A stretch of DNA of 64,000 nt from a phage. How positions within the stretch are numbered: the stretch's first letter is position 1; the number at the start of each line of letters is the position of its first letter. The stretch is from the NCBI GenBank assembly GCA_020241125.1, contig GCA_020241125.1_4708.1; one strand, written 5' to 3'. The notes beneath the pieces are model-generated. The model was not told the DNA's origin, made no database searches, and was given only the letters and a program-made list of their open reading frames with translations. Both the position numbers and the translations under genes were made by a program. Positions 14,206-33,899 of the stretch are shown piece by piece.

Positions 14206-14984
14206 GCGAACGTTTCTCCTGTAATGTGTTGCGGATGGCGTAGCATGGTAGCATCCCATTGTACGATCTGGCTTCGGCTTACCCGCATCATGATGGATTC
14301 GTCATCAAGCCCCTGTTGCGCAACCGGCAACCAACGTTCCCCAAGCACCTTCGCTTCAACACGTTTCTTGCGTGGGTTGTAACGCACCTCGCTAACCCAA
14401 GCGAATCCAAGCGGATGGACTACCCGTGGATAAAACATGCGAAGCAATTGATGCATCCGATCCGTTGCCTCCAATTTGCCATCCACCATGTAAGGTTTCA
14501 CCATGGTAAGCTTTTTGGTGTAATACGTTCCAACGGTATGGTTACGCCAACTTGGCAAGGCATGATCCCCTTCTCTCAGTTTGCTATCCGAGTTCATTGA
14601 CCAGACCTGCTGTTTACCGGCCAGCATCGCGTACTGCCGATCAACGCAACGAACCCGATCGGCGAACAATGGATCCAGGACATCATCCACCGCGCCCTTA
14701 TTGCGATAACCGTGATGTACCACCAACCTGCTTGCGCTCATCGATGCGGGATGCTGGCTCTTATGCGCATACAGCCCTCCGTCACCGCGAGCGTCGTAAA
14801 GATAACCGCATGCGCCACGCCATATCACCTTGCCTACGGTTCTCTCGTCTTCAAGCAGCATCGTCGGCCCATCAAGCAAATTGGTGAACCACTGCACCTT
14901 CACGCATTCCGCTTGGACATGCTCAGGTAATGCCTGATACTCTTTTTGGGTGTATAAGGTATCAAAAATGATTTCTTCGTTCAT
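14202..14984 (-). CDS. hypothetical protein (260 aa), first gene of a leftward unit
   Basis: ATG 14984; promoter-like motifs at 15065-15078 and 15116-15132 lie upstream on the minus strand. Confidence 0.65.
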   Translation of the reverse strand: MNEEIIFDTLYTQKEYQALPEHVQAECVKVQWFTNLLDGPTMLLEDERTVGKVIWRGACGYLYDARGDGGLYAHKSQHPASMSASRLVVHHGYRNKGAVDDVLDPLFADRVRCVDRQYAMLAGKQQVWSMNSDSKLREGDHALPSWRNHTVGTYYTKKLTMVKPYMVDGKLEATDRMHQLLRMFYPRVVHPLGFAWVSEVRYNPRKKRVEAKVLGERWLPVAQQGLDDESIMMRVSRSQIVQWDATMLRHPQHITGETFA

Positions 14985-15064
14985 TTAAAAAGTTCCTCTG
15001 TTTCACGTTAATTAAACAACGTATTGATTTCTATTTGACAGAATACGAACATCGTACGTATCTA

Positions 15065-15078
15065 TCACTTAGGTAACG
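15065..15078 (-). promoter_or_regulatory. TTACCTARGTGA motif, degenerate copy
   Basis: TCACTTAGGTAACG resembles the exact 16-mer found at 43272-43287 and 51447-51462. Confidence 0.3.
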
Positions 15079-15115
15079 CTTACGCGTCGCGTTCATGATA
15101 CCATGCATCATGAAG

Positions 15116-15132
15116 GTAATATAGCCGTGAAA
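15116..15132 (-). promoter_or_regulatory. candidate phage early promoter, second exact copy
   Basis: Identical 17-mer GTAATATAGCCGTGAAA (plus strand) upstream of the leftward small-gene cluster. Confidence 0.45.
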
Positions 15133-15367
15133 GGATTTGTGTTAACGCAAGGGTTTTGTTTGTTTTTTAAGAAGGGATGGATTTAGAAGAGGTGTTTCAA
15201 GGAAGGTAAACGAGAATAGGTATTTTGATTTAAGTAAGATGTTATCTGTATCCGTTAGAAGTGTATTGTCTAAGTTATCTTGTTTATCTTAGGTTTAATC
15301 GTTTTTATCTTGGTATGTTTAAGTTGTTTTTATTTAACTGTTAAAATGCTTATCTTCAAAACAATGG

Positions 15368-15422
15368 ATAACATGTGTTTACTACGCTCGTTGAGTTATA
15401 ACTCAACGGTAACACATGTCAT
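15368..15422. repeat. nested palindrome
   Basis: Perfect 20-bp palindrome CGTTGAGTTATAACTCAACG (15389-15408) flanked by inverted arms AACATGTGTT and AACACATGT. Confidence 0.6.
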
Positions 15423-15811
15423 CTGTGCATTACACTACGTTACATGCTAGTTAAATCGGATAACTCAAAAAAACATTTGTGATACTCTTCTTCACGTTGT
15501 TCATCAGAGTATCTCGTCTATACTCATTGCATTCGTATACGACATAACCGTTACACGCTAACGCTACGCTTATAGCTTGATAACTCTAAGGATAAAAACA
15601 TAAACTCGCTTCGCTCGTTTAGTTTTTCTTTTTCTTAGAGTTATCCTGTTGCTCGTCTCTAAAGGACTTCGCTCCTCCCCCGTCCCCCGAAGGGGCCGAG
15701 GTCGTGGAAATTTTACTTTCCAAATACATTTACAACATCTGTAAACTTTTACTCCAGGTACTTAATCTTATCATTAGAAATTATAAAAGAGAAAATAAAC
15801 ACAAACATAAA

Positions 15812-15846
15812 CCTTCCCCCGACCCGTAAGGGAAGGAGGAAGGGAG
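15812..15846 (-). terminator. conserved hairpin, family copy 3
   Basis: CCTTCCCCCGACCC-GTAA-GGGAAGGAGGAAGGG, 9 nt 3' of the stop of 15855-16748. Confidence 0.65.
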
Positions 15847-15854
15847 AGATTAAA

Positions 15855-16748
15855 TTATTCGGAAACGTTATAACCGAATACTGCTTTACCGTAGGTGTGA
15901 GTACCGTCAGCTAACGACAGCACCAACACATGGTTGTATGTAGCGTTAACGCCTTTATCGGTAGACCCGGTGGTAGCACCGTTATAGACAAAGGTAGCTG
16001 TTTGCAGATTGGTTTTCAGTTCATTGATGATATCATCACTTACACCAGTCTGTTCTTTAATCAGGGTGGTCAGGTTACCCGCTAAGCCTGCATCGATCTT
16101 GGTATCGTTACTGGTAATAGCTTGTAAACCTGCGGTGTAAGTACTGAAGTCTAACGGATAGGTTAACAGACGTGCTGAGGTCTTGGTACCATCGCCTTCA
16201 TCAACGTAGGTTAAGTTACCCAGATTGGTAACCTTGATGATGTTAGCCAGATCCAGCGTGGTGTTATAAACTTTAACTTGAACAGAGCCATACCACGCCA
16301 ACGAATCTTCTTTGGCTTCCAGGGTGATCGTCTGGATACCATGCTGGTCGAAGGTAACCGGCGTAGCTAACGTTTCGGCTTTGATGTCTTTCGCTTTATC
16401 CAGGAACTTCTCACCGGAAGGCGTGATCATACCGTAGCGTTGAGCTACAAGGTCAACCACATCACCGATGGTGGTGTTCGCCTCAACGTTAACACGTACA
16501 GCGATCTTCTGGAACCACTTAGCCAGATCCAGACGATGGTAGGTGACATCTCGGTTATTGAAGTAAGGGGTACCTTCACCAGGACTAAGTGTTAAAGTTG
16601 CTTCTGGAGCAGAAGGATTCTTTTCTTTAAGGACGTATTTAAGGTCGGTATATTTAAAGCTGGCACCAGTGTCAGCGTTAAGCTGGTTGATCTCATCAAC
16701 GATAAGTTGCCAAGGTGTTTTTAAAGTAAGCGATACTTGAGCAGTCAT
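15855..16748 (-). CDS. abundant (codon-optimised) protein, member of a six-gene paralog family
   Basis: ORF 15855-17024; ATG 16748 with GAGGAA RBS; strong host-like codon bias; motifs YHRLDLAKWF and LAWYGSV shared with 27809-31428 genes; followed by conserved hairpin 15812-15846. Confidence 0.8.
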   Translation of the reverse strand: MTAQVSLTLKTPWQLIVDEINQLNADTGASFKYTDLKYVLKEKNPSAPEATLTLSPGEGTPYFNNRDVTYHRLDLAKWFQKIAVRVNVEANTTIGDVVDLVAQRYGMITPSGEKFLDKAKDIKAETLATPVTFDQHGIQTITLEAKEDSLAWYGSVQVKVYNTTLDLANIIKVTNLGNLTYVDEGDGTKTSARLLTYPLDFSTYTAGLQAITSNDTKIDAGLAGNLTTLIKEQTGVSDDIINELKTNLQTATFVYNGATTGSTDKGVNATYNHVLVLSLADGTHTYGKAVFGYNVSE

Positions 16749-16887
16749 TTTCTTCCTCGATAGTTGGTACATCACTCTCAAAAGATGTAAGTGTTTACAG
16801 AAATTAATATATTTTATATTAAATGTGAATATTATGGAGAACGACTCCGAATCTCCTTTTCGACCATCAAAATCAGAGGACACGAAC

Positions 16888-17433
16888 ATGTCTACTTTAG
16901 ACTTTAACAAAGCAGCGAAATCCCTTCTGCTTGATCTTATTAACACCAAAGCGACCCGCACATTGGCTGAAGAAGAACTGCAGTTCGGTACTCCGCAGGA
17001 ATCTTCCGAACATGAAAAGAACACCGTTATTCAGCTGGACGCGGCGGCTGAAGCAGCTAACCTGCAGGGTACTCAGCAGTTCTACTACGATCGTCTGGCT
17101 CTGTCTGACGTTTTCGCTGATGTAACTGGTGATGTTACTTTCGAACTGCCGCACGGTACTGACAGCATTCAGGCTTCTGAGCTGGTAAGCAAGCTGGTCA
17201 CCAAATTCGGTCTGGCTTCCCTGAATGGTGAAATCAGAGAAGAAACCTTCCAGCTGTCTGCCGGTACTGTTGGTGAGGTAATTCTGAATGCGATCGAGGG
17301 TGGCCTGGTATACACTGGTACTCTGCGAGTTGCCCTGACCTACGCACTGGCACCAAAAGACGAACTGGCAACCGTTCTGGCGAATAACGTAGCTGAAGGT
17401 TTCGAGAAACCGACCGTTAGCGTTGTTGGCTAA
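16888..17433 (+). CDS. abundant (codon-optimised) protein, paralog-family member
   Basis: ORF 16825-17433; ATG 16888 follows AGAGGA; strong codon bias; QFYYDRLALSDVF motif; divergent from 15855-16748. Confidence 0.75.
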   Translation: MSTLDFNKAAKSLLLDLINTKATRTLAEEELQFGTPQESSEHEKNTVIQLDAAAEAANLQGTQQFYYDRLALSDVFADVTGDVTFELPHGTDSIQASELVSKLVTKFGLASLNGEIREETFQLSAGTVGEVILNAIEGGLVYTGTLRVALTYALAPKDELATVLANNVAEGFEKPTVSVVG

Positions 17434-17632
17434 TAAGCACATAGAGCAATAGTATGGGTTTTGTACAGCTCGGCTATTGATCTTCTACAATTTGGTTGTA
17501 ACAATCTGCGTGGTTGCACGCTTATCTTTCTCATTGAACGCTTCGTATGAAGCGTGGTGTTGAAAGGGTTGTGGATCTCCTCAAGCGGCCAGGGACCCAG
17601 ACCAACCTGAATAAACACAAACACATGTTAAG

Positions 17633-17664
17633 CCCCTCCTCATCCGTTATTGGGTGGGGGGGGG
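17633..17664 (-). terminator. degenerate family-like hairpin with G9 tract
   Basis: CCCCTCCTCA ... TGGGTGGGGGGGGG with the same upstream context (AATAAACACAAACA) as copy 3; 3' of the endolysin gene. Confidence 0.35.
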
Positions 17665-17727
17665 TCTTATACGTCTTTATGCGTTCCGTTCGTTCTGGAG
17701 CGTTTTAGGACGGTTTATGATGGTGTT

Positions 17728-18363
17728 TTACTCAACACTGAACCCGTTCAAGATGATCGCTTCATAACGCTTACGTTCACGACGTTTGCGTGCCTGCCAA
17801 CCGTAGATGAATTTCTCATCTTTCTCACGACGTTCCGCTAATTCGATGTAATAGGTGCTCTGCATGTCCAGCATCGCATCGATGAGATAATCCTTACCGG
17901 TTGCACCACGCTTAGCGATGTAAGCGTCGAGCGCGCTTAACGTCGCAGGTCCCATCAAACCGTCGGCGTTGATATTCTTCCAGTACGTTTGTCGGTTGTT
18001 CATGACGTTCAGATAACGTTGGAGGTTCTTAACCGGGACGGTTTTGCCAGCATTGATACCCAGGTCAAAGAGACGGTCAGCTAAGAACACAGAACGTTTC
18101 ATGACTTCGTCAAGTTTCATCTTATCCCAGAAGTGGGTCTTGTAGATAAAGAACGCCATTTCCGTGGTAAGGTTACGCATGTTACCGTCCCAGCCGAATT
18201 TCGTTTTCAGCGTGGTTTTGTATTGATCGGCGAGTGTTTTCGTAATGCCGTGGTTCGTGATTCCACCCGAGTCATCGGGATCGTCGACGTAACCTGCTTC
18301 GATGCTGGTTTTATCGCGAATGATAAATTCGCACGTGAAATCTTTCTCAGTAATCTTAGCCAT
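17728..18363 (-). CDS. endolysin, GH108-like N-terminal domain plus PG_binding_3-like domain
   Basis: GYVDDPDDSGGITNHGIT matches the GH108 EGGYxxDPxDxGGxTxxGIT core; DGLMGPATLSAL matches the peptidoglycan-binding DGxxGxxTxxAL motif; GAGGAG RBS 6 nt before ATG 18363. Confidence 0.85.
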   Translation of the reverse strand: MAKITEKDFTCEFIIRDKTSIEAGYVDDPDDSGGITNHGITKTLADQYKTTLKTKFGWDGNMRNLTTEMAFFIYKTHFWDKMKLDEVMKRSVFLADRLFDLGINAGKTVPVKNLQRYLNVMNNRQTYWKNINADGLMGPATLSALDAYIAKRGATGKDYLIDAMLDMQSTYYIELAERREKDEKFIYGWQARKRRERKRYEAIILNGFSVE

Positions 18364-27767: not shown

Positions 27768-27799
27768 CCCTCCTCCAACCCGTAAGGGAAGGAGGAGGG
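27768..27799. terminator. conserved hairpin, family copy 4 (bidirectional)
   Basis: CCCTCCTCC-AACCC-GTAA-GGG-AA-GGAGGAGGG between convergent genes 26477-27757 and 27809-28714. Confidence 0.7.
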
Positions 27800-27808
27800 A
27801 ATATGCTG

Positions 27809-28714
27809 TTATGCTACATATAACGTCAGATAACCGTCGATGAGCGTATTCATCACACTGAGTTGAAGTACGACAGCTTTACTACCATCTGTACGTACAC
27901 CGAACGGTAGTGTTTTGAATTGCTCTGGATCGGCTATTACTTGCGCATTCTGCAAGTTGAGCGGTCCAGGCATTGCTGACAATACCCAGCGATCGTTGAC
28001 CATAAGGCCGTCGATCTCTTCAGAGAGACCCAATTGCAGTGCGTTCATTTCTGCGATTAGTGCCTCCGATTGCGTATCGCCTGAGGTTAGCGTATACCCA
28101 TCGGTAAGCGATGCCAGAACACCAGCAGATACGAACCAGTTGTACGAAACAATAGCGCCTGGGAGTTTACTGCTATCTCGATCGATGATATAATTCAACC
28201 CAGCCAACATATTGTTGCGAACGAGGTTGTTGAGGTCATTATGTCCTGAGGTTAACTCAACAAGTAACTGACCAACCCATACTTGGTTACCGGGTTTAGG
28301 TGTTATCATAACCTGTATCGGTGACTTGGACTTATCCAGATCCGCGTCGACAATCTCGGTTTTGTTGAGAAGGATACCGTACGTCGATGCTAAGACAGGT
28401 AGGATCTCAGAGACCTTGGTTAATGCATCTAAGGTTTCGATCTCGATGGGCCAGCGGTGCTGTCCGCCAGACCAGGTACCCAGTTTACCAAGATCGATGC
28501 GGTTATAATAGATGTCGACAGAGTTCACCAACCCTGAACCCGGTTGGGGATGCACGGTTAACTTGCTGTTACGCTTGTACCATGTGCTTTCAGAAGCCTC
28601 ACCGATAACCAGTTTATCCAGCGTTACGCCTCGAGCATCGAAATCGCTATGCTTTCGAATCAGCAGAAAGAGGATTTCTTTCGATTCTAACCCCAGGATT
28701 TCACTGTACTCCAT
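27809..28714 (-). CDS. paralog-family protein (301 aa), putative tail or baseplate-associated
   Basis: AAGGGG RBS; motifs YYNRIDLGKL and DRWVL shared with 30493-31428. Confidence 0.7.
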   Translation of the reverse strand: MEYSEILGLESKEILFLLIRKHSDFDARGVTLDKLVIGEASESTWYKRNSKLTVHPQPGSGLVNSVDIYYNRIDLGKLGTWSGGQHRWPIEIETLDALTKVSEILPVLASTYGILLNKTEIVDADLDKSKSPIQVMITPKPGNQVWVGQLLVELTSGHNDLNNLVRNNMLAGLNYIIDRDSSKLPGAIVSYNWFVSAGVLASLTDGYTLTSGDTQSEALIAEMNALQLGLSEEIDGLMVNDRWVLSAMPGPLNLQNAQVIADPEQFKTLPFGVRTDGSKAVVLQLSVMNTLIDGYLTLYVA

Positions 28715-28729
28715 TTAACACCCCTTAGG

Positions 28730-29614
28730 TTACGGTAGGATTTCTGCGCCCGTCGGGCCTGCCTTACGAGCTTCCAACGCACCAAGGTCGTATTTCAACG
28801 TCAGCGTATCGTTGGTGGTAAATAGGTTGTGATAAGTCGAAATCAGATCGGTAACCTGTGCGCCTACGATTTCGTTCATGTCGAAGGCAGAACCTTGACC
28901 ATCATCAGCACGAACGATTTTGTCGCCAGCAGAGACCATCCCAATTTCAGAAATAACCGCGTACTCTTCACCACCTTCGGTGAGTTTAGCCACATTGAGG
29001 TATTCGCTGATATCCCACGGCGTCCAGACCAAAGAGACTTTACAGCTATAATCGTAGTACTCTCCGGTTGCCACCAGAATTCCTGTTGTTGGAATATCCG
29101 GTCGGGGTGGGTTGAGGTTCTTGTCGGTTGGATGCCATTCAATAGTCTGAGCAACACCATCGATGTACTTGGTATATCGCGTGGAGCGGACAACGTTATC
29201 GAAATCGATGCGACGGCCGTAATAACAGATGTACTTTTTACCGTTTTCCAGTGTCTCAATACGACGTAACCCAAATCTAGCACGTTCGTCCGTGGTTAAA
29301 TCGTTACCAACTTCACGCATCACGAAAGGTTTGATTTTCCATGGTGAAAGATCGCTTGCTTCGTGAGCGATCGGCATCGAGGAAGGGATGCCGTTAGCGT
29401 TGCGGATGAATTCGTGACCTTGGTTGCCGATACAGAAGTAACGTACAGCAGGATTACCCTCGGGGTAAACCTTTGATTGAATCTGAAGCTTTTCGTTCAA
29501 GGTGCTGTGTTCTTCCCATGCGTGAGGAAGACCGAGCGTAAGGTTAGTTTGTACTTGACCGCCGATAATCGTACGGACGATACGATCGGTAGCACGGATT
29601 TGTGTAGAAGCCAT
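28730..29614 (-). CDS. hypothetical protein (294 aa), possible paralog-family member
   Basis: AGGAAA RBS; YYGRRIDFDNV resembles the family YxDRI motif. Confidence 0.65.
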   Translation of the reverse strand: MASTQIRATDRIVRTIIGGQVQTNLTLGLPHAWEEHSTLNEKLQIQSKVYPEGNPAVRYFCIGNQGHEFIRNANGIPSSMPIAHEASDLSPWKIKPFVMREVGNDLTTDERARFGLRRIETLENGKKYICYYGRRIDFDNVVRSTRYTKYIDGVAQTIEWHPTDKNLNPPRPDIPTTGILVATGEYYDYSCKVSLVWTPWDISEYLNVAKLTEGGEEYAVISEIGMVSAGDKIVRADDGQGSAFDMNEIVGAQVTDLISTYHNLFTTNDTLTLKYDLGALEARKAGPTGAEILP

Positions 29615-29630
29615 GTCTTTTCCTATTTAA

Positions 29631-30482
29631 TCAGTTATATTGCATCAACAGGATACCGCCGTAGTTCGTGCAGTAATCTTGGCTAAGCGTAACGATAACA
29701 GCGTTAGCGAACGCAGGGTTAACAGGATAACCCTGTGCGATAAGTTCTGTTGTTTTACCGGTTGCAAGCACGGTGGCTCCGTAAAGGTTGTTTTCGTCTT
29801 CACGGCCGTTATAAACCCATGGGGTTGGCGCAACGTTGTTGAATAAGCTAACCAATGCGCTTAAGTTACCACCAACTTTTAACCCGGCGAGATCGGAACG
29901 GATAGCTGTACAGTCTATAGCGTAACTGTAGACCAATGCCTGGATACGATTTGCGGTGTAGTACGGGAAATTGAGACCGGTCATCACCGAAGTCTTCATC
30001 ATCCCCGCAATATCGTGGGCACTATCGAGGAGATAGAACGTAACACTTCCCGTCCAAGCCAATCCGGTTGTTTTCAATTCTACGGTGTGAGGGAACGGAT
30101 ACTCATCACCTCGTACGATCGGAGAATCGACGCAGCTATCCTGATCGATAACGATTCCGTACGTTGATTGAATCAGAGGGATAAGATCGTGCGTTGTTTT
30201 AACCCCAGCATCGATAGCAAGCTTCGGTTCCATTCCCAAGAAGAAGTCTTGGATAGGGATACGATCGTACCACACGTAGCTGCTTTCGCGGTATTGTGCT
30301 GGTGTTACTGTTGCCGAAGGGGATACCTTAGCGCGAGTGTTTCGGCTATACGCGTGGTTTCCGTTTTCAGCAACATCCGTGATATCAATTGCATCGAAGT
30401 TAAAGTCGAAGTCAGGATTGGCTGCCTGAATAAGTTCAGCGACCAGTACTTTAGGACTTTTGTTTAACAATTTCTGACTCAT
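29631..30482 (-). CDS. paralog-family protein (283 aa)
   Basis: AAGGA RBS; motifs VWYDRIPIQDFF and LAWTGSV. Confidence 0.7.
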   Translation of the reverse strand: MSQKLLNKSPKVLVAELIQAANPDFDFNFDAIDITDVAENGNHAYSRNTRAKVSPSATVTPAQYRESSYVWYDRIPIQDFFLGMEPKLAIDAGVKTTHDLIPLIQSTYGIVIDQDSCVDSPIVRGDEYPFPHTVELKTTGLAWTGSVTFYLLDSAHDIAGMMKTSVMTGLNFPYYTANRIQALVYSYAIDCTAIRSDLAGLKVGGNLSALVSLFNNVAPTPWVYNGREDENNLYGATVLATGKTTELIAQGYPVNPAFANAVIVTLSQDYCTNYGGILLMQYN

Positions 30483-30492
30483 TGTTTATTCC

Positions 30493-31428
30493 TTAGCCTT
30501 GTTCTTCTGGAGAACGACCCTGGAGGCTTGCGGTATGTCCGTCGACGTTGTAATAGAAAATCAATGGACCGCCGACAGCAGTACAGTAGTTTTCATCCAG
30601 ACTGATCTCGATACCGTATTGGTAACCTGCTCGTGCTGGAATACGTCCACCTAACTCGCCGTTGAAAGCCACTTTAGCGTTATACAGGTTATACGGTGCG
30701 ATGTTGTCGTCTAATACCCAACGATCGGTAGTCATTTCAGCCAGAAGATCGGCAACCACCACATCGCTAATAACGGTACCTGTTACCAGCGAAGCCAGCA
30801 GTTCACCGTAATCAGAGGTATCACGACTGTAACTGTAAATCTCACCGCTAGCGCGTACGCCTTGACCAAAGAACTTAAGACCATCCAGCTCCTTGATCGC
30901 GATAATATCATCAAGATTCGGTACACGCGACTTCATCAAGATACGAACGCTCCCCGTCCAAGCCAGGCAGTTAGATGCGACACGAAGCAATTGTCCGTTA
31001 ACAGTATCCCAGTTAAGTTCGTCGTTGACGATTTCTTCCGCGGTAAGACCAAGACCGAAACGTTCTTTGATGATAGGCCAGATATCACGCATCTTGGCGG
31101 CGTCTGGCGCATCGATAAGAATAGGCGCTACGTTACGCAGATACGCACCGATATTGATACGATCGTAATACAGCGTCGTCGAACCTTCATAATCGTCTAA
31201 CTCGGTAAGCTTAGCGGTTGCTGTCGCCGTAATCTGGGTGTCGCGCTCATAGGCGCTTTGGTTGGTGGTTGGTGTTCCTAAAACCAATAATTCAGGGGTT
31301 AGGATATGCTCTCCGTTCTGAGGTGGGTTATCGTGGTTGATAAGACCATACACGAGATCGGATGAGGGTAAAGAGACGTCGACCGGGTAAAGTTCGGTGT
31401 CGTCAATAGTTGTTACCGTATCACTCAC
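30493..31428 (-). CDS. paralog-family protein (311 aa)
   Basis: GTG start with strong GAGGAGG SD; motifs LYYDRINIGAYL, LAWTGSV, DRWVL. Confidence 0.7.
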   Translation of the reverse strand: MSDTVTTIDDTELYPVDVSLPSSDLVYGLINHDNPPQNGEHILTPELLVLGTPTTNQSAYERDTQITATATAKLTELDDYEGSTTLYYDRINIGAYLRNVAPILIDAPDAAKMRDIWPIIKERFGLGLTAEEIVNDELNWDTVNGQLLRVASNCLAWTGSVRILMKSRVPNLDDIIAIKELDGLKFFGQGVRASGEIYSYSRDTSDYGELLASLVTGTVISDVVVADLLAEMTTDRWVLDDNIAPYNLYNAKVAFNGELGGRIPARAGYQYGIEISLDENYCTAVGGPLIFYYNVDGHTASLQGRSPEEQG

Positions 31429-31487: not shown

Positions 31488-33899
31488 TTAAACGTCCTCG
31501 ATAGGCAAAGGTTTAACAATCAAACGATTGAGCGGATTCGATAGACGCATACTGATAGGCTTATACGCAGCATGATTCGTCTCACTTAGAGCCACTGATC
31601 TGAAACGACCGTTCAACTGTTTGTAAATCGGTTCTATCCAGAGACCTCGAAGATCACGTTTACGGAAACGTTGTTCGAACGGTTTGATTGGGGTTACGGT
31701 TAACCCACGCAACGACTCTGATGGCAGACGCTCACGAAGGTCGCGTGGTGCCCGACCTGGGAACGGTGCAAGCCACAAACCATCGAGCGGATTTTTACGG
31801 AAACGCAACGAGACAGGATCGCTAATGACTTGTGCCCAATATTGCGTACTGAATCGAACGGTTTGGGTGTTCTCGTAACCACTACAATCACACCAGGTTG
31901 GTTTCGGAGGCGCTTCCAAACTTTCAACCGCTGATTCACGCCAGTTCGTCATCGGGTTGTTATCATGCACGAATTTGATAACTTCCGTAGCCTGGTTATC
32001 CGTATCATGAACGTTTGCCTGTGCCCAGTCTTCCCACAGTTCTTCACTACCACTTACTAAACTCGAACCGAGACGAACGGCGATTTTATTTAGTGGTTTG
32101 ATTGGGTCACTGTTGATTGTCTGGATAAAATGGATGGTGTAACTGCTCAATGTCTTAAGCAGCTGCAGCATTCCGTATTGAATATCCTTAAGACTGGTGA
32201 CATCTTCCAAATCCTGGCCGGTGGCCTTTGTGAAGATATCGAGAGCCAGAATACCCGCCTCTTCTTGACTGATTGCGTCAAGCTCCCAATCCATCGATAA
32301 GAACCATTCCTTGTAAAGCTGTCCAATACCGAAGTCGACACCAACATCCATGTAGAAGTTTTCAACGATTGCTTCAGCCATGCCTCGAGCTTGATAATGT
32401 TCTTGGAGCTGATACATGAACTGATGGCGACGCCAGCCCTGGTAAATCTCGGTAACGGCGCTCAGAAACTCTTCAGTACTGACGACAGCACGCAGCGTCA
32501 CTTGCTTATCCAAACACCACCAGATCAGTTTATCGGGAATGATAGCAGGATCGGTAATGCTACGGAGATGGTCGAATGTCGGTAGCGTTAACACCCTGAC
32601 GTGGTTAGCATGGATCTTAGGTACTTCAATCAGCGTCATGCCCATCGAATAGTTCAGCAAATACAAGAACAGCTTGTATGCATCTTTCATCGACATCGTC
32701 ATGGTATCACCCGTCACCGGGTTGGTTGTCGTTAACCGTGACTGATACATGCCTATCGCGCTAAGATGAATCCATTCGTTCAGCAGGAAATCATACTTAG
32801 GATACAGTTCACTGTCTGTAAGGTCTTCGGCTTCACTTTCCAACACCTTGGTCGTTAAGGTATTGTTGTCATGCATCGACATCTTCTCTATCGTGCGGTT
32901 AAGCTCGGTATAATACTCCGCTTCGTTATCCCGCGCTAAAGGGAACTGTTGCTGCATCACGGTGGTGACCTTACGTCTTACCGTGCCATTACCGACGATC
33001 TCTTGAAGGTTAAGCGGTTTACGCTCCATGTAAACAGCAGGTTTTAACGTCTGGGGTATCTCGGAAGCGTCTTGTTTGATCGAGAACGCACCGATTGGAA
33101 TTCCACGATCGGTTAATACCTTTTGAATGAGCTTATCGTAGTTTTCCGTTCTGCCCATGTTTCTTTCAACGTAAGCGATGTTACGATAGAACCAGAGCAT
33201 TTGGGATTCGGTCATGTATCGCTTGAATCGATCGAGACCTTGATGGCTTGCCAGATAACTCCAGATATGGAAGCTATGGGCATAATGGGTATGACAGTTT
33301 TCCCAACGAATACCTTTTATCATCTCAGGTATTTGTGTGAATAGGATGGCGTATAGCGCAGGCCAATGAAGCATATCGACGCTCTCGTATGCCGGATGTT
33401 CCCAGCGTCTGAAGTAATCGTCGATTTCTTGCTGTAAACGTGGAATAAGATTGGCCTCGCGTGACTCAACATCTTGTGTATCGTACCAGAGAATCTCATG
33501 ATTGCGTGCCGCAATTGCTTTCTCGATATCGATGGGGTTAAGGATACCCAAGATCAACATACGTTGTTCCGGGTACCGCGCAATTAAACGATTGAAATAA
33601 TCTCCACCATACGCGTACTCCCTTGCCGTCATGCGATGCCGTAACATGTTTTCCTTAGTGAACTCGATCTCTTCGAGCGTATCCAGGGAATTTACGGTCA
33701 TCATTGTCTGACAAGGATGATACTCGCCAGCGAGATTCATGTAGTATAACCACGTGCGTGGGTCGTCCCCGACGGCCATCTGGTAGACTTCGGAAACCTT
33801 GAGGTTTAACCGTTCTGCCGTGATGTCGCTTTTAATAATCAGGGTGTCCGTTAGACGCTGCACGCTTTCCGAATAAAGCTGATAGTCAGTGTTGGACAC
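31488..33899 (-). CDS. large structural-type protein (about 804 aa) with C-terminal RFRK...GLW repeats
   Basis: ORF 31488-33968 begins with TTG; GTG at 33899 has GGAGGA SD; C-terminal repeats RFRKNPLDGLWLAP and RFRKRDLRGLWIEP. Confidence 0.65.
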   Translation of the reverse strand: MSNTDYQLYSESVQRLTDTLIIKSDITAERLNLKVSEVYQMAVGDDPRTWLYYMNLAGEYHPCQTMMTVNSLDTLEEIEFTKENMLRHRMTAREYAYGGDYFNRLIARYPEQRMLILGILNPIDIEKAIAARNHEILWYDTQDVESREANLIPRLQQEIDDYFRRWEHPAYESVDMLHWPALYAILFTQIPEMIKGIRWENCHTHYAHSFHIWSYLASHQGLDRFKRYMTESQMLWFYRNIAYVERNMGRTENYDKLIQKVLTDRGIPIGAFSIKQDASEIPQTLKPAVYMERKPLNLQEIVGNGTVRRKVTTVMQQQFPLARDNEAEYYTELNRTIEKMSMHDNNTLTTKVLESEAEDLTDSELYPKYDFLLNEWIHLSAIGMYQSRLTTTNPVTGDTMTMSMKDAYKLFLYLLNYSMGMTLIEVPKIHANHVRVLTLPTFDHLRSITDPAIIPDKLIWWCLDKQVTLRAVVSTEEFLSAVTEIYQGWRRHQFMYQLQEHYQARGMAEAIVENFYMDVGVDFGIGQLYKEWFLSMDWELDAISQEEAGILALDIFTKATGQDLEDVTSLKDIQYGMLQLLKTLSSYTIHFIQTINSDPIKPLNKIAVRLGSSLVSGSEELWEDWAQANVHDTDNQATEVIKFVHDNNPMTNWRESAVESLEAPPKPTWCDCSGYENTQTVRFSTQYWAQVISDPVSLRFRKNPLDGLWLAPFPGRAPRDLRERLPSESLRGLTVTPIKPFEQRFRKRDLRGLWIEPIYKQLNGRFRSVALSETNHAAYKPISMRLSNPLNRLIVKPLPIEDV

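Follow-up and report, generated by a model that had tools for sequence, protein, structure and literature searches.

The interval between positions 27809 and 31428 of the analyzed stretch of phage DNA (64,000 nucleotides of contig GCA_020241125.1_4708.1, assembly GCA_020241125.1; hereafter, the window) raises the question of what a row of adjoining genes that share short motifs with two distant genes encodes, and what their products may do in the virion. The initial annotation proposed a paralogous family of about six copies split between two loci and saw in it diversified fibre, baseplate or decoration proteins, possibly linked to host range. All six flagged ORFs are present and correspond to gp31, gp32, gp33, gp34, gp22, and gp23 of Escherichia phage Goslar, with which the window is collinear and 97.2% identical at the DNA level, being a variant of this phage. 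Goslar encodes chimallin, PhuZ, and split RNAPs, and the window is DNA of a chimallivirus, a nucleus-forming jumbo phage. The gene order is the same in both, and the five proteins assigned below to the DUF7941 family are 89–99% identical in amino acids to their Goslar orthologs. The window nevertheless represents a separate strain, with gp22 and gp23 alleles diverged by 11%, further cassette differences at gp26, gp21, and gp9, and a 1.7-kb insertion.

According to our analysis, five of the six ORFs are paralogs that belong to the Pfam family DUF7941 (PF25613). Their scores, at 27809–28714 (E 5.2e-54, 184 bits), 29631–30482 (E 3.3e-47, 161.7 bits), 30493–31428 (E 6.9e-63, 213.1 bits), 15855–16748 (E 5.7e-52, 177.3 bits), and 16888–17433 (E 3.1e-19, 70 bits), all exceeded the curated gathering threshold of 27 bits. 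Pairwise blastp identities among the five are just 21–25% (31–75 bits), which could be taken to mean that the shared motifs are accidental and the genes form no family. This has next to no probability, in view of Pfam E-values down to 7e-63, a confident two-domain model that matches a solved relative (see below), and a leave-one-out test on the 443 ORFs of the window, in which each member was recovered by a profile of the other four (E 4e-10 to 2e-34) with zero false positives, and no further ORF was reached even at E ≤ 100. Chance similarity was thus rejected for these five ORFs, for which the pairwise and profile alignments called for by the initial annotation proved significant. The short motifs from which the family had been recognized are genuine signatures containing near-invariant positions: in a set of 107 diverse members, Y88 (93% conserved) and R90 (99%) belong to YYDRI, W157 (68%) and G159 (94%) to LAWTGSV, and W237 (96%) to DRWVL.

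The sixth ORF, 28730–29614 on the minus strand, had been listed as a probable member and is embedded among the DUF7941 genes, but its score against the family profile, with every filter disabled, was −2.3 bits. It has no DUF7941 match and hits Pfam DUF7208 (PF23838) with E 3.3e-95, a family found as a single copy in 253 phage records. Its matches in the PDB were 11lx/11pb/36za (E 5.5e-199) and phiKZ gp139 (9xpg/9xqd, E 1.5e-42), and it is 97.6% identical to the solved chain of gp32, the baseplate spoke protein of Goslar. DUF7941 membership was therefore rejected on the Pfam and PDB matches and the profile score, and the explanation by chance similarity applies to this ORF alone. Judging by its sequence, it is the baseplate spoke protein (Goslar gp32/phiKZ gp139), unrelated in sequence to DUF7941. 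The structure literature describes five dimers of gp32/gp139 per spoke; in the solved structure of Goslar, gp35 neighbours the innermost gp32 dimer. In phiKZ, gp139 is a physical partner of a DUF7941 protein, and the gp139 band runs from the wedge protein gp128 to gp127 (PMC13250141).

The count of six has to be revised accordingly: the window holds five members, and the Goslar genome holds nine that we confirmed by profile or Pfam (the same five plus gp86, gp91, gp93, and gp161). A tenth Goslar member according to the preprint on this phage, gp92, is weak, with 13 bits against the family profile and no Pfam match. At least nine members were found in SPN3US, and public data contain about 2,300 sequence clusters of the family. 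All named tblastn and BFVD matches belong to jumbo phages of 197–307 kb, and DUF7941 is a chimallivirus-specific family. The feature is real but has been described before, as the paralogous family with its ten members and their copy numbers, the gp22 filaments, and a “fibre cloud” model of long filaments proposed to be anchored at the baseplate are contained in the cryo-EM preprint on Goslar (Basu et al., bioRxiv 2026, doi 10.64898/2026.04.21.720040). The value of our finding is in this respect confirmatory. What the present analysis adds is the recognition of two subclades, a conserved low-copy set within a wedge-spoke operon and a variable high-copy gp22-like set, together with the synteny, a linker motif, natural tandem-module fusions, and a conflict in the literature between head and tail assignments of the family.

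A member of the family is a two-module bead composed of an NTD (~150 aa), a linker (~27 aa), and an optional CTD (~100 aa). In the gp34 homolog (30493–31428, minus strand) these parts occupy residues ~15–165, 166–192, and 193–295, respectively, and the AF2 model of this protein (pLDDT 90) comprises two globular domains joined by a linker with pLDDT of ~70–89. Profiled separately, the NTD, the linker, and the CTD act as modules independent of one another. The linker carries the motif L..LxG[LF]x[YF], in which L172, L181, G183, and Y186 are 76–86% conserved across the 107 members, although these share only ~20–25% mutual identity, and in natural fusion proteins with two or three NTDs the motif follows every NTD. 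A single AF2 chain of one such triple-NTD protein, P0089, run without an alignment as a proxy for the head-to-tail contact, gave a pLDDT of 32, too low for the model to be of use. A single-sequence search of the PDB with the gp34 homolog yielded no meaningful match; a profile search, in contrast, reached phiKZ gp127, which is also the only PDB fold match of the model, and the fold of DUF7941 is shared with the NTD of gp127. The candidates of a classical tail fibre or tailspike were rejected, since the model shows two globular domains and no fibre domain was found in the five ORFs by Pfam or PHROG, the PHROGs label being simply “virion structural protein.” Outside the window, members of the family are fused to other domains: Goslar gp86 to NCTSP_N and TIM-barrel (glycosidase-like) domains, Goslar gp161 to DUF285 (BspA-type LRR), and metagenomic members to Laminin_G_3 (ConA-lectin) and He_PIG (Ig) domains.

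Three of the five genes lie, on the minus strand, in an operon that opens with the gp35 homolog (31488–33899; 99.0% identical to Goslar gp35), an inner baseplate/wedge protein. It is directly followed by the gp34 homolog (97.4% identity to Goslar gp34), the gp33 homolog (29631–30482; 98.2%), the gp32 spoke gene, and, as the last gene, the gp31 homolog (27809–28714; 98.7%), all three DUF7941 members being full-length. As read from the sequence, a G+C-rich hairpin with a T-rich tail (27768–27799, minus strand) appears to close the operon between the convergent gp30 and gp31, and Goslar has an annotated terminator at the equivalent position. The order wedge, DUF7941, DUF7941, DUF7208, DUF7941 is kept in Ea35-70, PCH45, and KpLz-2_45 and partly in SPN3US and phiKZ; the phiKZ order gp128-gp127-gp126 is equivalent to the start of the operon at gp35. 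The gp34 homolog and Ea35-70 gp8 are reciprocal best hits (33% identity). The best hit of Ea35-70 gp9 is the gp33 homolog, which itself hits KpLz-2_45 gp155 best among the proteins compared (88 vs 77 bits). Fibre-like proteins encoded nearby are gp25 and gp29.

The second locus comprises two divergent genes, a full-length gp22 homolog (15855–16748, minus strand; 88.9% identical to Goslar gp22) and a short gp23 homolog (16888–17433, plus strand), which consists of the NTD and the linker motif without the CTD and covers positions 4–174 of the 276 in the DUF7941 profile. In the sequence, the A+T-rich intergenic region of 139 bp (16749–16887) reads as carrying an RBS-like GAGGA before both start codons, and a terminator-like hairpin (15812–15836, minus strand) lies immediately past the gp22 stop codon. 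An Rfam scan of positions 14900–17900 gave no match. A sigma-70 promoter scan returned 17 sites against 29 expected from shuffled controls, and is uninformative because chimallivirus late promoters are not of the sigma-70 type.

The two loci also differ in relationships and variability. Whereas gp33 and gp34 group with Ea35-70 gp8/gp9 and KpLz-2_45 gp155, gp22 falls together with the N-modules of gp161, gp86, gp91, and gp93 (27–41% identity); the best hits of gp31 are gp34 and gp22. The search of viral contigs with gp29 found just three Goslar-like loci, one of them Goslar itself, so that the comparison of strains is small, with four genomes. Among these, gp22 (89–93% identity) and gp23 (52–92%) are among the most variable genes, as against 91–100% for the endolysin gene adjoining gp23 and 96–99% for gp32 to gp35. 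At a 90% identity cutoff, sequences of gp22 fall into about 55 clusters. The suggestion that the copies are diversified thus suits gp22 and gp23, but not the copies in the interval that had been singled out, as gp31, gp33, and gp34 together are 92–99% identical. The estimated numbers of copies per Goslar virion are ~27 for gp34, ~112 for gp33, ~8.5 for gp31, ~577 for gp22, and ~2,144 for gp23, the most abundant member (doi 10.64898/2026.04.21.720040).

Where these proteins reside in the virion has been approached in three phages. Mass spectrometry of Goslar virions detected all ten members, and gp22 formed filaments in vitro, as seen by negative stain, with head-to-tail dimers predicted by AF3; the baseplate map contains no density for any DUF7941 protein (doi 10.64898/2026.04.21.720040), and none is present among the modelled chains of the capsid, portal, and neck. 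Among the relatives, a structure has been solved for phiKZ gp127 alone, which is located at the spoke's outer end in the baseplate (Nat Commun 2026, PMC13250141); 9xqd (chain 0) models only its NTD, in one copy per spoke. It is one of three phiKZ members (with gp126 and gp143), which share just ~14–24% identity with the family in the window, and the phiKZ spoke gene gp139 is separated from them by 15 kb, unlike the interleaved spoke gene of the window. Just about six copies of a single member are thereby placed in phiKZ, as against the ~2,700 bulk copies estimated for Goslar. In SPN3US, “paralog family B” was described in 2016–2017 as gp83, gp138–154, gp160/161, and gp237, and mass spectrometry agrees with its association with the virion (Thomas 2016, PMC5105663; Ali 2017, PMC5694885). 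Our NTD and CTD profiles built from the window matched SPN3US gp138–145 and gp83 (NTD E 1e-29 to 1e-41), confirming them as DUF7941 proteins. SPN3US is also similar in having one abundant full-length and one abundant short member; however, its ~20 members form one long tandem array and were assigned to the head.

On balance, we favour the explanation, which we consider probable though by no means certain, that DUF7941 proteins form filaments of the baseplate built by two functional sets. The beads would polymerize head-to-tail, each subunit using its linker and CTD to dock on the NTD of the subunit that follows, and the resulting flexible filaments would attach to the outer end of the spokes. 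The conservation of the linker motif and its recurrence behind every NTD in the tandem fusions lend this polymerization indirect support. For gp34, gp33, and gp31, which are co-transcribed with wedge gp35 and spoke gp32, the most likely role would be that of adaptors or primers close to the baseplate, at the tips of the spokes, the site of gp127 in phiKZ; gp22 with the CTD-less gp23 would provide the strain-variable bulk subunits of the chain. Members encoded outside the window that combine the gp22-type N-module with glycosidase-like and LRR domains may be built into the filaments as host-binding heads. An analogy, and no more than that, is offered by chaperone-usher pili, in which a flexible subunit extension binding the next globular domain, as proposed here, yields a thin linear polymer, and specialized adaptor and tip subunits would likewise come from the same family; in contrast, the searches revealed no similarity in sequence or fold, and neither a chaperone nor an usher is present. 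What the initial annotation had in mind, namely fibre, baseplate or decoration proteins with a possible link to host range, agrees in general with the position of gp127, the lectin, Ig, LRR, and glycosidase-like fusions, and the variability of gp22 and gp23; on the other hand, one of the genes encodes the spoke itself, the family is no classical tail fibre, and SPN3US genetics assigned it to the head instead of the tail. Counting against the filament explanation are the empty baseplate map of Goslar, the small number of copies placed in phiKZ, the SPN3US members in tailless particles and the possible co-purification of filaments in Goslar (both discussed below), the failure of the triple-NTD model to reproduce the head-to-tail interface, and the restriction of the variability data to four genomes.

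The SPN3US results give reason to consider that the family, or at least gp22/gp23, could be associated with the capsid or packaged and ejected, the location of phiKZ gp127 being a special case. The members gp138–154, gp83, and gp160/161 were found in DNA-filled tailless particles of the mutant 64_112(am27), in which densitometry put gp141 and gp160 at more than 300 copies each, and it was their presence in purified tailless particles that led to the assignment to the head (PMC5105663; PMC5694885); the lack of density in the Goslar baseplate would fit as well. However, self-polymerizing filaments can co-sediment with heads, and lectin, Ig, LRR, and glycosidase-like partners make no sense in a capsid interior. 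Processing by the prohead protease is listed for the main ejection proteins gp53 and gp54, but not for gp141 and gp160. The absence of DUF7941 chains from the Goslar head models, the baseplate position of the sole localized member, and the location of the genes in a wedge-spoke operon adjoining tail fibre genes also argue against the capsid, and we regard this location as unlikely.

The tendency to polymerize also allows for an arrangement in which gp31, gp33, and gp34 are fixed bricks of the peripheral baseplate, and gp22/gp23 form free filaments late in infection, possibly with an intracellular role such as organizing tails in virion “bouquets” and with no part in host recognition. Indeed, gp22 polymerizes alone in vitro, the Goslar orthologs of gp31 and gp34 are low-copy (roughly 1–2 and 4–5 per sixfold position), and the Goslar preparation also contained carried-over assemblies of PhuZ and of chimallin from the nucleus shell (doi 10.64898/2026.04.21.720040), so that filaments of gp22/gp23 could simply co-purify. 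Nevertheless, SPN3US repeats the pattern of one full-length and one short high-copy member in CsCl-purified particles, the hypervariability of gp22 and gp23 between strains suggests an exposed surface under selection, and paralogs fused to effectors and carrying the gp22-type N-module were detected in virions, which makes mere co-purification improbable.

The baseplate-filament explanation can tentatively be extended to a programmable heteropolymer, a possibility to which we give somewhat less than even weight. In such a polymer, the conserved, low-copy gp34, gp33, and gp31 would start chains at the tips of the spokes, and the fast-evolving gp22 and gp23 would elongate them. Since the gp22-type N-module is also present in the effector members (gp86, gp161, and others), it would be the subclade of the N-module that sets the insertion point of each effector head. 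The “head” proteins of SPN3US would then be free or capsid-entangled filaments, which, if true, would settle the conflict between head and tail assignments in the literature. In nucleus-forming jumbo phages, a single virion may contain thousands of DUF7941 protein copies, which could build a micron-scale organelle for host capture unlike classical tail fibres. This would have a bearing on host range and on phage therapy, as the nucleus-forming jumbo phages resist many DNA-targeting defences.

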